Source: Lama guanicoe | Taxonomy: Eukaryota | DNA length: 64,000 nucleotides | Assembly: GCA_013239625.1 (NCBI GenBank) | Contig: MU055269.1 | Span: forward strand, 3,659,225 to 3,723,224 | Reading direction: 5' to 3' | In this document: positions 9,581 through 24,837 of the stretch, piece by piece | How positions within the stretch are numbered: the stretch's first letter is position 1 | Layout of the letters: every line of letters starts with the position of its first letter | Made by a program: the position numbers and the translations under genes | The notes under the pieces: model-generated | What the model was told of the DNA's origin: nothing | Databases searched by the model: none | Seen by the model: the letters and a program-made list of their open reading frames with translations, nothing else

Positions 9581-9747
9581 AAATCTCTTCCCTTGTGGAG
9601 ACTCAATGGTTTGCATCATTGATGACCGAGAAGACGTCTGGAAGTTTGCCCCCAACCTGATCACTGTGAAGAAGTACGTGTACTTCCAGGGCACGGGGGA
9701 CGTCAACGCCCCGTCTGGGTCCCGGGAGCCTCAGGCCAGGAAGAGAG
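9581..9747 (+). CDS. CTDP1: CTDP1 exon 7 (167 nt)
   Basis: ctcccag|AAATCTC...AGAG|gtgggc. Translates NLFPCGDSMVCIIDDREDVWKFAPNLITVKKYVYFQGTGDVNAPSGSREPQARKR, including the conserved IIDD motif. Ends in phase 1. Not in the ORF track. Confidence 0.96.
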
Positions 9748-10644
9748 GTGGGCCACTCCGCCGGGGCGTCAGAGGATGAGTGTTTGCTCCTGTTTTTCTC
9801 CTCTCATCTCTGTCACGGCCACTGTAAATTCAGAATTCAGTTTGGTTTTATTTCTTTTTATTACTTTAGTTATACAGGTTGTTGGTTTATTTATTTACGC
9901 TGAAAAGCACGATATTATTTGGCTTCAGTTATTTTTTTCTGACAGTACTAACCTAAACGTTTTTTGAGTGAGTGAAGATTAAAGAATACAACTTAGTGCA
10001 TCTGAATACTGCCTTTCATTCCCAGCTTTCCTTGAAGGACAAACGTGACTCTGGGAATCTGGCCGCTGCACTGTGTGCAGAGAGCACACTGGTGTGAGGC
10101 TCTGGCACGCGGGAGGCCGACGCCGTGCCCTGGCCCGGAGCCAGCGGGGAGGCGTGCAGCTGCGCCTGCCAGGCAAGCCTGAACCTAAAATCTGGAGAAA
10201 ATTTAAAGTTTTGGTTTAAATGAAGTTTTTCTGATGATCTTTAGTTTTTAAATGAAATACTTCGAGGCATACGGTTATTGCTGCAGTCACTGAAATGACC
10301 CTGAGGTGCAGGCCAGGAGGGGTGGGACCCAAGAGCATCCCCACGGAGGATCAGGCTGGACAGCACGGCTTGTGGAGGCTGCCGTCCACAGGCCCGGCCT
10401 GACCGCGGCCTGGACACTAAGCATGCGGCATGTTTTGTGTCGTCGTGGAAACCAAAGCAGAGTGAGCGTGTGAGGTCCCCAGACCTGAGTGTTTTCTCTC
10501 CAGCTCCTCCCAGCAGAGGTTTGCCAACCCTGGGCCAGAGTGGGGTTCAAGCCCGCAGCCGTGGGAGGCAACCAGGTCTGCTTGAGCGGGAAGTCCCTGT
10601 TAGATGCTGAGTGACACACCTTTTTCTCTCGTGCACACGTGTAG

Positions 10645-11641
10645 TAAATCCTTCTTCTAAAAGGTGCCGACATCCCGGAACAGCCTCCATCCGTCAGGGA
10701 CCCCGAGGAAGGAAGGCAGGTGTCTGGGGTTGAGCAGAGCAACGGCCTCGGGAAACCAGCGAGGGAGCTAAACGGAGGTGCTGCTCCACGGGGGGGCTGG
10801 CCCTGGCCTGGGCAAGAGGAGGACAGGGGCGCCCGGCCCGCCGCCCGCACCCCTGGGGCCGATGGCAGGGGGCCCCCATCATGTGTACAGCAGCGGGGGC
10901 GGACACAGCCCGAGAAGCGGCCCGTGTGGGGCCCCACAGGCCCCGACCTGGAGCTGGACGTCCCCAGTGACAGCGGGAGCAGCAGTGAGTCTGAAGGCCG
11001 GCCGTCCCCCGCCGCCTCTGACTGCGAGAGCGGGGAGAAGAGGGCCCGGAAGACCAAGGCCCCCCGGGACGCCGGCAAGGGCGGCCCACCCGGCGCAGCG
11101 GCGGACAGGCCTGCGGGTGCCAACCACTGCGGGGAGCCCACGCCCGGTGCCCACCTGGACGGCCAGGAGGAGGGCGAGCGGGACGGCCTCTGCGGGCTGG
11201 GCAGCGGCTGTGCTGACAGGAAGGAGGCCGAGACGGAGTCGCAGAACAGCGAGCAGTCAGGCATCACGGTGGGTGAGTCCCTGGACCAGAGCGTGGAGGA
11301 GGAGGAGGAGGAGGAGGAGGACGCCGACGACGATGACCACCTGGTGCACCTGGAGGAGATCCTGGCCCGTGTGCACTCTGACTACTACGCCAAGTACGAC
11401 CGCTTCCTCCGCGGGGAGGCCCGGGAGCCCCCCGACATCCGGAAGATTGTGCCCGAGCTCAGGAGCAGGGTGCTGGCTGATGTCGCCATCATCTTCAGTG
11501 GGCTGCACCCCACAGACTTCCCGGTGGAGAAGACGCGGGAGCACTACCACGCCACGGCGCTCGGTGCGCGCATCCTCACCCAGCTGGTGCTGGACCCCGA
11601 CGCCCCCGACAGGGCCACCCACCTGATCGCGGCGCGGGCCG
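10645..11641 (+). CDS. CTDP1: CTDP1 exon 8 (acidic linker plus start of BRCT domain); 5' boundary is either 10645 with a +1 frameshift or 10664 in frame
   Basis: ORF 10720-11712 gives SNGLGKPARELNG...GQEEGERDGLCGLG...DHLVHLEEILARVHSDYY...VLADVAIIFSGLHPT...ATHLIAARA. Donor GCCG|gtgagt at 11641/11642. See the finding on the acceptor. Confidence 0.93.
11296..11319 (+). repeat. (GAG)8 coding triplet repeat (poly-Glu)
   Basis: Eight uninterrupted GAG codons in exon 8. Confidence 0.9.
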
Positions 11642-13751: not shown

Positions 13752-16700
13752 GTACGTGGGCTCAGCCAGCAGGTAGCGCGCTGGGGCGCTGGTGGTCCGC
13801 GCATGAGGGTCGGGCTGGGGCATGCTCCTCACGCATGTCCACGTGGGGCCTTTCTCCACGTTCCCTGTCCTGCCTTGGGTCCCAGAACTGGGAAGTCGAG
13901 TCCGTGGTTTAGCCTTTGCTTGGTGTCGGGGTGCCAGCCCATGTCCTCCCAGCGGAGGCAGGCCTTGGGCGGCGGGATCTGACCCTCCTGCCTCGCCCTT
14001 GCAGGCCTGTCCCCCCTGCAGGACGGAGAGAACTGTCACGAGGGAGGAGGGTCCTGCTCGGGCCATCGGGAGCAGCTCTGCTCTGCGGCTCCCGCCCTCA
14101 GCAGGCCCAGCCTCCCTGTCCCACTTCCGACTCGGGTCAAACTGAGGGTCGTGGCGGCTGGGGCAGTTTGTGAGCAGGAGTGCAGGTGGGTGGGGATGGC
14201 ACTGCCCTGAGAGGAGCATGGCCAGTGGTCTCCACCCACGTCTCCACAAGTGTCTGTTTCCTCCCTGTGTGTGGAGGACCTCTGCCGGGCTGAGGGCCTT
14301 ACACAGCACTTGGTGAGGCACCTTAGGACACCCTGAGGTTCAAAGGAGGGTCCGAAGCTCTGTCTTGTCTTCCGTGAGTGGCCGTCGCTGTGAACTGTGT
14401 GTGATGGACACGTGTCATCTTGCTTCTGGGTCCCCTGCTCTCTGGAGCCCAGAGCCCTTCCCGAGAGCCAGCCCACGTGTGGCAGCCGGCTCCTTCTGCC
14501 TTGACTCCTCGGGCCTACGCTGACCTGCCTGCACTGACCGGCAGGGCCCCACCAGAGTGCTCTGTGGGTGGGCAGTGACTCCACACCCTCTGGCCACAGC
14601 GACGCTGCGGGGCCGCTGCGAACCAGGGCTGGTGTGTGCAGAGTGGACGTGGGCGTCTGCTGGCCCCGCTGCTGGGCTCCACACGTGAGCGGACAGACGC
14701 CCTGTTCGGCCTCTTAGGCCAGTTTGACTTGGGCTACTTGATTGGTGGTTTGTTCTGTTGTTTTCAAGCAAAGGCGTCGTCACTGATGAAGCCTCCATCT
14801 TCTCCCAGTGACGGTTAGTCATTTGAAGAGACACGTGGCGACGTCTGTGCTTCTGTTTACGTGCGAGTTCCTTCCCGAGAGCAGGGCTGCTGGGCTGAAG
14901 GGCACGTGTACCCTTGTCCTTAACAAACGGGGTCAGTTGTTTTCCAAAAACTCACTAGGGTCCGTGGCCCCACCCGGAGGACCCGGCCCCGCCCTCGCCC
15001 TCCGTCCAGTGCTGGCCCCTCACACCCGCCCGCCCGGTGGGGAGTGGAGGCAGACGTCCCCAGCGGTCGTCTCCAGCTGCCGGGGGGCCCCCCACGCACA
15101 CCGGTCAGCCTTTTGGGTCTTAACGTCGGGCGGCTGCTTACATCCCGGATGGACTCCCTTTGCCTTACTGGGGTCTGACGCCTTGTGGCTGTGTCGTCGG
15201 GGAAACGTTTGTTGTGGGTAGAAGTGTGTTCTGAAGATGACGCCACCCGCCGAGGTGCCGGGGGGACCTCCATGGCTCTCGCCGAGCCGCCGGGGCTGGG
15301 GTTCTCTCTGTAGTCCCGGTTACAGCTGCGGTTTTCACTGTCGGGTCTTCTCGAGGAGTTTCTCACTTTGCTCCTCCTGTCCTCCGCCTTCTTTTTAAAC
15401 ATGTTACGTTGATCTGGCATTATTTCAAGTCCGTGTTTTTTGAGTCATAGCTTACCTGAGGCCCCAGGACAGAGTAGACATTTGGGCGTTTTCTGTCACC
15501 GGCGCCGAGCGGGTGGCAGGCGGCTGAGGGAAGGCCCAGCCCAGGCCCGCGACGCCGCGCTCCTGCTGTGGGGACCTTGCCTTCAGGGCAGAAGCGTCCC
15601 AGTGCCTGAGGGAGCTCCCGCAGGAGATTCGGGTTTGGGCTTATAGCTCTGTATTTTACTGTCCCTGAGGACATCGGCACCCGAAACAGAGGCCTGTCGC
15701 CCCTTCCTCAGACTCCTCACGTGTGCAGACCTGTGGGTCAGGATGGTCCATTTGTCACCACGTAGTGTTCGTCTTCGTGCAGTCATTGCTCCACTGAAGC
15801 ATTCTGAACGGGGCATCACCCTTGTTTCTGAGGCTCCTCCGTTTGAAAGTAAACCCAGTGGGTGTGCAGGACACACCTCCAAGGGGGACCCTCCCCAGGC
15901 AGGACTGTGGGTGCTGCCTGCAGGGGCCTTCAGGGACGTGGACCCAGGCCCCTGCGCTCACAGGTTCCAAGCGCGGGGGCCGTGGGTGCAGGCCCTGCTG
16001 GCTCACTGCTCCCAGGGTCACAACTCAGGAGCCTGCAGCCTCGAGGCTGTCGGGGACACAGGCCACGGTCAGTTAGCCTGCGGGACGGCAGGGAGAGCCT
16101 TACCGCCACCCGCACTGGAGTTGCCCTCCTGGTGGAGGAGGGTGTGAGCTCGCACTCAGGGAGGGGCCGGGGAACAGGTGGGGAGAGCCAGTCCCGCCAC
16201 CACTTCTCACACCTTCCCCAGCAGGAAACAGTGATGGTCCAGTGCCGATGTTAATTCTCAGCCCGAGCCCGCTTGTGCGGTGACTGGCTCTCGCTGCAAG
16301 AGTTGCCCACAGACTGAGGGCACCAGGCCTGAGGTGGAAGGGCTCTGGTCCTGGTAAGAGGGCACTGCTCTGATGGGATTGGTCCTCCCACTGCAGATGG
16401 CCAGAAGTCTCACGAGCGGGCGCACCAGCCATGGGAGGGTATCGGCCAGCACCCTGCACGGCGGGGCTTCTCCTGCGCCTGAGAGGAGCGAGCCGGCAGA
16501 GCCCTTCCTGAGGGCGTGTCTCGTGTGTCCAGCGTGGATGAAGCCATGCCCATGGCGGTGCCCCCAGGGCTCTGAGGCAAGGTTGGGATTAGAGGCCATC
16601 GGAGCAGACCCCCGATGGGAGGGTGGAGGGGCCTTAGAGACGGTGTCACTGCGTTGATGTGCTGGGAGGACAGCAGGCCGGGTGGGAAGGTGGAGCCATC

Positions 16701-19700
16701 TCCGCAGAGAATTGCAACCCGTGACGACAGGCAGACAGGCGCCCAGACTGACAAGTGCAGGGCCTCAGGGTGACTGGAGAGACGGAAACCAGGCGCGTGA
16801 AAGGCGACGCGGGAGGAGGATACCTGGGGCGTGCACCCCGCACGGGGGTCAGCAGGGAAGGCCCCGGCCGCCACAACTCCCGGCCACGGGCTGGACGAGG
16901 GAGAAGCCAGGATGAGCACGGCGTGGTTCAGCTTTTTAAAGACCAGAGATGAGAAAAAGCCTGTTTTACGACCTGTCCTGTAATAGTGTGTGTGTTACAC
17001 GTTAACGCTGGCGTTAATGGTGTGTTCGTGCCGTGATGTACCATTAAGTGGCACCACAATGTAAATTGTAACGTGTACAATTAAAGAATGGATTTTTATC
17101 TCTTAAGGTTTAATGTTTTTGTGTAGCAAGAAAGTTAAGAGCTGCTTTTGTAGTCGCCACCAGCTCATTTGGGTAGTAACATTCGTAGATCATGAGATGC
17201 TGTGAGTGAGGAAAGGGAGATGCTCGTCTTCGGGGCCTTGCATGCTCGGGAGGCACAGGCGGTGAGGGGTGCTGGTGGGGCCAGGTCTCCTGGGGGCGGA
17301 CACATTAGCACAGCCCCTTCCAGACCTCCAGGCCTGTCTGGATGGCCGGGCCACCCGCAGTGTCAGAGCCGAGGGGCTGCCAGCACACGGGAGCTGGGCC
17401 AGGCACTGAGGAAGCTGGGCGTTCACACAGCGGTTGCACCGTCTCCAGATTTGGGGGCACCGTCAGCCTTCAAAGAGACAGCTGTCTGTTAAGCAGAAGA
17501 GAACGAGGCTCCTTTGGTGGTGTCCTGGGAGGAGCCCCTGACGCTCCCCTAGCAGGCACAGGGCTGCACTCTCCCCAGTTTGCTCCCTGCCACCTGTCTT
17601 GCCTGGAAACCCCCGACAGCGCCTGACAGCGCCCCGCCTCCGTGCACTCTGTACCTGCTCCTCCTGGTTTCCTGGGCTGGTGGGCGGGGGTGCTGGTAAG
17701 TTTCACTCGTAGGGGCGAGCAGTCCCCGAAACGCCTGGTGTTGGGTTTACCGCGGGGATCGGTGCTGGACTGAGACGCCGTGGTTCACCAAGGACGGGGA
17801 TGCATGCCCTTGTGTCTGGAGCCCCAGCCCCACAAGCAGCCCTGCCCTTCGCAGTGGGGTGGCCTCCCGCCCTTGGCCTGTGGCTCGTGGAAGAGGGGGT
17901 GTCAATGGGCAAGGACAAGGCAGGCAGGTGCTGGCGGCTCCCTGAACAGCCACGGCTCCTTCAGGAAGTGCCCTGGGGTGCATCACAGGCTCCCAGGCTA
18001 CGATCTTGTGGTGGCTGTCGTGATGGGACAGGGAGGCCAGGGACTGGGCTCCGAGAGTACCGTGTCCCCGTGCGGGCAGCCCTGGGGGCCTGTGGCGAGT
18101 CTGGGGTTTCCAACTCAGGTGGCAGTGGTGGCACAGACACAGAGATGAGCACGAGGAGGTGCTGTTGTGGCCTTCATCTTCCGTCTGTGTGAGTCTTGAT
18201 TTGACCTGAACACTTCTGGCCTCTGGGGAGTTGACAACCTCCCTGGGCCGCCTGGCGATGGTCATTGCCCAGATTAGCTCAGATGACCCCCCCAGGAGTA
18301 AAACGACACCGTGGTTCACGACACTGGAAATGAGGGACGGCGGAGCACGGGGCTGTCCCCCTTCCGAGCGCTGTGTTCACCAGGGTCCTCCCGGCAGCGT
18401 GGTTCAGGCTTCCACTGCAGGGACAGCCTACAGATGCTGTACTTTGAATTAGAAGGATGCAGGAGATGCCAGGAAGGATCTGTGTGTTAAAATGACACAG
18501 AAATGACAGTTCTTAAATTGCAGTTTTACAATAGCGTTTGCGTAGCTTAAAGCAGCCCCAGGTCAGTCCTGTGCTGACGTTTACCCGAGTGAGTCCTGGC
18601 TTTAGATCTGCTTCACGCTGAAAATAAAGTGACAAACATTTGGCTCGTTTCTCTTAAATGTGAAGAACAAAGGCATATTAAACTGTTTGGCATATTTAAA
18701 AATTATGTACAGCAGTGGGTTTTCAACTGCTCAGCCTCGCTGGGAGTCAGTGGCGGCAGGCGAGGAGCTTCTGAGACAGGAGGGAGCAGTTAAGTGCTGT
18801 CTGGAAACAACCGCGCAGACGTGAGGGGCTTCCTCCCACTTGTGTGACGGTGCTGTCGATGAGGCGCGGAGGGCCCGGACTTGTCCCGAAATGTGTGTGA
18901 TTTACATGAACAGTCGCAGTTCAGTCCCACGTGGTGCAGAAAAGAGAGGCTTCAGCTCTGCCTGTCTTTCCTGAGGAAAACACACGCGTTGGGCTGGGGT
19001 TTATTCTAATGAGTTGACTTTCGGTGAAATTTTCTCTTTTTTTTAACTTGAAAGTGTGATCCCCACCAAAGCACTGATTTTTGTTAGTTCTCGTCCAACC
19101 ACTTAGGTACACAGAGGGACAGTAACATGGTTCACTGTCCGGTTATTCCGTGAACTCTGTGAAGGGGGCAGCGTTGCTCCAGCCGCACCAGCACGCTGCC
19201 CCGATGGAGACCATCTCCTCGGAGGAGGCCGGAGACGTCTTCTAGATAGCCTTCGTCTCGCGAGTTACGCTCCATCCTCGCCCCACTCACGTGTGCAGGA
19301 GACCGTACGTTCTCCTAAGACTGGCAGGCGGTCGACGGCTTGTGGGTGGTTCTGCTTCCGAAGCTGGTGAAGTGGCCCATCTCCGCAGGAGAGCAGCAGC
19401 GCTCCGAGCAGACCGAGAGCCTCCCGTTTATCTGATGGCGTGCTGTGCCCGACACGTCTGTGCCTGGTCCGTCTGCCTCTGTTTGCGCAGTCAGCCCTTG
19501 GCTCTGCTGCTCCTGCCTCCGGAAGCTGACCCACACCCGTGTGCCCAGGGCGGGGGGCCCCCTCCCTTCGCCTCCCAGGCTTGTGACTCAGCAGTGTTCT
19601 AAGCCTGGAGCCCGCGTGGGCCTTATTGTGACAGGTGCCAGGCTTCCGGGCAGCTGCGGCTCTTCCACGGGCTCTCCCGGGCGAAGGCTCTGAGGATGCT

Positions 19701-24652: not shown

Positions 24653-24837
24653 GTGGATGACATCCTAGGAGAAGGCAGTGATGACAGCGACAGTGAGAGG
24701 AGGCGGCCGGAAGAGCAGGAGGAGGAGGAGCGGGGACGGAGGCCCCGTGAGCCTGAGGCCCCGGGGGCCCAGCGGGGACGCGCGCTCAAGTCCACTCCAT
24801 CCAGCGAGGGGAGTGCAGCGGATGGCCGGGGGCCCAG
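24653..24837 (+). CDS. CTDP1: CTDP1 exon 12 (185 nt)
   Basis: cttcgtcag|GTGGAT...CCCAG|gtgagc. Translates VDDILGEGSDDSDSERRRPEEQEEEE...GRGP. Confidence 0.95.

Follow-up and report, generated by a model that had tools for sequence, protein, structure and literature searches.

A shifted acceptor at exon 8 of camelid CTDP1 and a likely harmless insertion in the segment that it bypasses

The CTDP1 gene of Lama guanicoe carries two closely spaced acceptor sites at the start of its eighth exon, of which the downstream site is the working one in camelids. In the stretch of DNA that was analysed (64,000 nucleotides of contig MU055269.1, hereafter the window), exon 7 ends at position 9747 and is joined to 10664. 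An ancestral acceptor that would begin the exon at 10645 is still present and is now out of frame. The preferred reading, held with a probability of about 0.9, is that exon 7 joins 10664 and that an extra A is a tolerated insertion, acquired in the bypassed segment before the camel-llama split. Overall, the case is likely an old, ordinary splice-site shift, and the mutation is likely harmless.

Two acceptors at the start of exon 8

The features of the region, with coordinates in the window unless another locus is named, are as follows.

9728..9749, plus strand: 3' end of CTDP1 exon 7 with its GT donor; last base 9747, phase 1; joint 9745->10662 in runs X17 and X19
10612..10615, plus strand: branch-point-like TnAY word, predicted by motif scan, with its A at 10614
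10643..10644, plus strand: upstream (ancestral) acceptor AG, out of frame now; start of the long forms of other mammals
10645..10663, plus strand: inter-acceptor segment of 19 nt, now intron; supplies the downstream acceptor with its AG and pyrimidine tract
10659..10662, plus strand: AAAA run, likely site of the +1 insertion; any of the four A may be the added one
10662..10663, plus strand: downstream acceptor AG, used; A at -3, G at +1, 9/10 pyrimidines at -14..-5
10664..11641, plus strand: functional exon 8, 978 nt, open; 324/325 residues identical to alpaca proteins
10731..10733, plus strand: TGA stop reached via 10645, 908 nt ahead of the next exon junction; predicted NMD target
G000:C7914, about 18160-19510, minus strand: L002, a processed CTDP1 copy with exons 7 (part)-8-9-10, at another locus of the window's own genome

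A preliminary description of the window had claimed that the orthologous acceptor leaves exon 8 out of frame and that 10664 offers an in-frame alternative at a cost of six residues. Both statements were confirmed. With the donor at 11641, starting the exon at 10645 gives 997 nt (remainder 1) and starting it at 10664 gives 978 nt (remainder 0). Translation from 10645 gives N-P-S-S-K-R-C-R-H-P-G...V-W-G-* and stops at the TGA, and translation from 10664 enters the conserved frame, G-A-D-I-P-E-Q. With 10664 as the acceptor, exons 2-13 are open for 843 codons (exon 12 ends at 24837; exon 1 lies outside the window), and the product agrees with the annotated alpaca protein P0129 (residues 104-946) at 842 of the 843 positions. 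Other upstream AGs that also give a remainder of 0 (10604, 10594, 10559 and others) were ruled out as acceptors. A TAA read directly from the sequence at 10645-10647 lies in the conserved frame, so that any acceptor farther upstream is unusable in that frame.

Judged from orthologous proteins, neither AG is accidental since each matches a splice junction in those proteins. The upstream AG has T at -3, T at +1 and 5/10 pyrimidines at -14..-5; it is the only one of the gene's acceptors in the window with T at +1, and its pyrimidine count is the joint lowest. Among the 12 CTDP1 acceptors in the window, only the used site has A at -3. The predicted branch-point A at 10614 is 31 nt ahead of 10645 and 50 nt ahead of 10664, in the sole TnAY word in 10561-10662. 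The A at -3 of the used site, together with the position of this single branch-point-like word ahead of both AGs, would lead one to expect some splicing to 10645.

The segment between the acceptors is 19 nt in the window versus 18 nt (six residues) in the long forms of other mammals, the latter spacing being read off proteins and not off orthologous DNA. The mammalian sequence VNHSSKG given in the preliminary description is borne out: VNHSSKG or VNHSSRG occurs in proteins of squirrel, beaver, hamster and macaque. A long peccary model reads VNPSSKGAD, which is what the window would encode with three A in place of four. This comparison, together with the gap-free camel-type contigs considered below, is the basis for placing the likely insertion in the AAAA run.

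Acceptor use in camelids

Three independent lines identify 10664 as the working acceptor: contigs from camel-type RNA, a retrocopy and camelid protein annotation. Four of 24 sequencing runs (RNA X17 and X19; DNA X6 and X8) were examined, all as contigs, which drop rare forms. The comparison of junctions 9747->10645 and 9747->10664 that had been proposed as a check could be made in the contigs of the two RNA runs, which come from two studies. Both runs contain the joint 9745->10662, which with the cut moved by +2 becomes 9747->10664 with GT..AG ends. It is carried by one contig per run (depth 175 and 221) and is the sole joint listed. The ancestral AG is intact in the window, and no joint from 9747 to 10645 is listed in either run at the level of contigs, from which rare forms are lost. 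The contig depths (8.8 and 17 for the intron path versus 175 and 221 for the junction) were not taken as a measure of usage. The RNA runs are camel-type and not from the species of the window; their V>A and V>M exon changes are present in 5/5 Camelus proteins compared and in 0/3 from alpaca.

The camelid cluster is the top protein match of the window (98%), and all 15 proteins listed for it (wild camel, dromedary, Bactrian camel and alpaca) read ARKR-GADIPEQ, without the six residues. Over the 325 residues of exon 8, the window departs from three alpaca proteins by a single residue, and comparison with five Camelus proteins shows 4 residue differences plus two shifted gaps. The window thus belongs to a South American camelid. 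In the comparison with Camelus, one residue is gained near 11050 and one is lost in a glutamate run (about 11290-11320); at the extra codon near 11050, the retrocopy sides with Camelus.

The retrocopy L002 lacks introns 7, 8 and 9 and is about 85% identical to the gene in exon 8. Past the exon 7 tail, 28/30 of its bases match the sequence from 10664 onward versus 7/30 from 10645 onward, a record of one molecule that gives neither a ratio of forms nor an order of events. The 7|8 and 9|10 junctions match at 29/30 and 27/30 bases, respectively, and 8|9 is joined with a small indel. The frame of the copy has decayed through several frameshifts. It diverges from CTDP1 at 61/783 non-CpG sites and its flank is seen as a loose end in RNA run X17 (depth 38); from these two observations, L002 is likely older than the camel-llama split. 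The flank in X17 may be transcribed, may sit in an intron of another gene or may represent DNA carry-over, and loose ends of DNA runs X6 and X8 likewise carry L002 sequence. Beyond exon 10, the copy matches a 42-nt stretch of intron 10 (16397-16438; 82% over 57 nt). This stretch has AG before it and GT after it and may be a cryptic exon that is in frame. Since the 60 nt concerned also match three further genomic locations at 84-85%, the stretch may be an exonised repeat.

With the RNA joints in 2/2 runs, the retrocopy and the 15/15 camelid proteins listed all at 10664, the real acceptor shift that the preliminary description offered as one of its options is upheld. A loss-of-function reading does not hold, as an in-frame transcript is seen and the frame is kept with the shifted site. 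This agrees with the earlier argument that a null allele of FCP1 is improbable because the protein is essential: mouse CTDP1 knockouts die before embryonic day 7.5 (PMC7803460), which makes a true null unlikely.

As translated, the camelid protein is intact and six residues shorter than that of horse, bat or cat. The junction corresponds to R341|G342, between the Pfam matches to NIF (182-319) and BRCT (638-693). In a weak alignment, it falls just inside a part of fission-yeast Fcp1 that is absent from the 3EF0 construct. Deletion of the disordered segment 330-393 of fission-yeast Fcp1 is reported to keep activity and growth (PMC4436666). The six residues thus likely sit in a dispensable linker, and the cost to the protein is likely nil.

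Long and short forms across mammals

Forms with and without the segment were counted as protein annotations, with 15 or fewer listed per cluster, and are not counts of usage. The exon 7 anchor was required; rows in which it was missing were dropped (8/12 in the warthog/peccary cluster, 8/14 in the muntjac cluster, 1/15 in toothed whales, two in horseshoe bats, one in macaque, three in fruit bats and one in mustelids). Among the proteins listed, only the long form was found in horse and rhino (15/15), in cats, bears and fox (15/15), in seals (15/15), in vesper bats (15/15), in horseshoe bats (13/13), in fruit bats (12/12) and in mustelids (10/10). Gorilla is long in 5/5 listed, with a five-residue segment. 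Great apes (P0102, P0117, P0243-P0246) read VNHSR in the same linker, which is five residues and not six. Both forms are listed for macaque (six long and three short), squirrels (14 and one, ground squirrel having both), baleen whales (ten and five) and beaver (four and one), and both are also annotated in langur, Kogia and pilot whale.

The short form is the one listed for the pig cluster (15/15), hippo (12/12) and pangolins (15/15), some of the pig and pangolin forms being derived from assembled sequencing runs. It also accounts for 15/15, 6/6 with the anchor, and 12/13 of the proteins listed for the ruminant clusters. Judged by annotation, the downstream acceptor is no camelid invention, since annotated proteins of pigs, hippo, ruminants and pangolins mainly use it. 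The preliminary description had presented 10664 as a neighbouring acceptor that rescues a frameshift; it is no chance neighbour but an alternative acceptor of long standing that appears in the annotation of many mammals. Pangolins (P0211-P0224) are short in 15/15 versus the long carnivores, which suggests an independent switch to the downstream acceptor. Three models, Rangifer P0199, Bos mutus P0079 and dingo P0058, match neither form.

The warthog/peccary cluster has three short forms and one long form, the peccary model, among its anchored rows. Eight proteins of this cluster read the segment in frame, as VVNPFSKGAD or VVNLFSKGAD. In whales the long form is the more frequently annotated one. 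The toothed-whale cluster is long in 14/14 with the anchor among those listed, which argues against a simple single switch, and the timing of the switch is uncertain.

A history may be proposed from these distributions. A pair of acceptors 18 nt apart would be an old feature of placental mammals. Its downstream member would have become dominant in several lines, including most even-toed ungulates, where this probably happened early. Once bypassed, the 18-nt segment would have lost its coding constraint and would then have gained one A by slippage in the camelid stem. Any leftover splicing to 10645 would meet the premature stop and would likely be cleared by NMD as noise.

The fourth A and alternative readings

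The preliminary description had listed a homopolymer assembly error and a heterozygous loss-of-function allele among its options, and the camel-type contigs tell against both. The intron-holding contig of X17 (record 3) covers 10239-10691 with 453 letters, no gaps and 23 other letters. That of X19 (record 5) covers 9721-10679, and all 41 of its gap letters are listed at or before 10077. The 19-nt spacing of 10645-10663 is therefore also present in a different animal, in contigs of two runs that are about 5% divergent from the window (23 in 453) and that extend only 29 and 17 letters to the right of the A run, less than the 31-letter bridging threshold. Since the same spacing recurs without a gap in both runs, an assembly error or a private allele is unlikely. 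If the fourth A were nevertheless of that kind, the true sequence would have three A and both acceptors would be in frame. The extra base does lie within an A run, the evidence consists of contigs and not raw reads, and DNA runs X6 and X8 are without cover across 9690-10850 and hence silent on three versus four A. Against this, besides the gap-free contigs from two studies, no long form occurs in the 15/15 camelid proteins listed from four species, and the gene would be intact via 10664 even if the proposal were true. It is considered extremely improbable, and the fourth A is unlikely to be an error, the spacing evidence being drawn from camel-type contigs and not from the window's own group. 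As a camel-type animal has the identical spacing, the insertion is taken as shared by both camelid tribes and was probably fixed before they split. This divergence is dated to about 16 Mya (15.8, CI 9.2-23.2; PMC5577142).

The order of events could also be reversed, with the insertion coming first, a weak downstream acceptor rescuing the gene and that acceptor then being strengthened in camelids. An essential gene would need a compensating acceptor (PMC7803460), and one retrocopy cannot order the events. However, the annotation of pigs, hippo and ruminants already has the short form as its main one, and the in-frame segment in eight warthog/peccary-cluster proteins indicates that dominance of the short form arises without a frameshift. 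This order is thus very unlikely. A further proposal concerns the fate of the ancestral AG, which the preliminary description suggested had become a poison junction as part of the acceptor shift. A sizeable, tissue-dependent share of transcripts would use 10645 and be destroyed by NMD, tuning the dose of CTDP1 in camelids. The AG persists and is the first after the only branch-point-like word, and its use leads to a stop 908 nt ahead of the next junction. No change at 10641-10664 is found among the rows listed for both camel-type runs, with 17 substitution rows unlisted. In addition, human frame-disrupting minor tandem sites are reported to rise under an NMD block, and some are tissue-specific (PMC8055015). 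Several observations weigh against the poison role: a joint to 10645 is lacking in 2/2 RNA runs, in contigs that would miss a rare form, and no other acceptor of the gene has features as weak as those of this site. At 23 differences per 453 bases, two given bases are expected to be unchanged about nine times in ten, and retention of the AG is consequently no sign of selection. Mice with one copy of the gene are haplosufficient (PMC7803460), so a need for tuning the dose of CTDP1 is not obvious. Regulated use of 10645 is therefore improbable. The same low standing is given to its fuller form, in which an insertion in the camelid ancestor made an old in-frame acceptor a poison one that was kept for about 16 million years to set dose by tissue. 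If true, it would represent the dated birth of an NMD switch, with the retrocopy as a fossil of the spliced form, and only in that event would interest in the site rise.

Under the preferred reading of a tolerated insertion in a bypassed segment, the case means little for biology, as the protein is intact and public camel and alpaca annotation already uses the 10664 junction. It does provide a tidy example of a minor alternative acceptor becoming the only one while the bypassed bases decay, with a retrocopy as an independent witness. It also serves as a warning, since human or horse exons aligned to camelid genomes would give a false frameshift in an essential gene.

Likenesses can be found in several known systems. 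The CESAR paper describes 360 real shifted exons tested in mouse, rat, cow and dog, and expects short shifts to have little effect (PMC4914097). As in those shifts, a nearby alternative site replaces the ancestral one, a genome alignment makes the exon seem broken at the orthologous bases, and the displacement at the protein level is a multiple of 3 nt. Unlike them, the ancestral AG of camelids is unmutated and was disabled by a +1 insertion between the sites, and the displacement is 18 nt where 3 or 6 nt are commonest (PMC4914097). The two acceptors, 19 nt apart in the window, also fall within the TASS definition of acceptors within 30 nt of each other (PMC8055015). Macaque, langur, beaver and whales have annotations for both sites, the indel lies in a likely disordered region, and NMD would conceal a minor site that disrupts the frame, all as in TASS. 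Unlike TASS, camelids show one site in use and the pair may be alternative no longer (PMC8055015). CTDP1 is not named in the text of that paper or in nine of its supplements, and a literature search that was thin on subscription journals found no paper on CTDP1 in camelids and, among the papers listed, none on this exon by title or opening of the abstract.

The domain order and sequence of CTDP1/FCP1 (Pfam NIF PF03031, BRCT PF00533 and FCP1_C PF09309) are intact in the window, and it is the absence of the six linker residues that sets the protein apart from that of horse, rhino, carnivores and bats. In humans, the disease CCFDN results from a variant of the same gene that lies deep in the intron after exon 6 and turns 95 nt into exon (PMC12785426). 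The two cases share a gene and a splice form that leaves the frame and meets an early stop while normal transcript is also made, this form being a predicted one in camelids. Unlike CCFDN (PMC12785426), the camelid change lies at exon 8, is fixed in the lineage and shows no sign of lost function.
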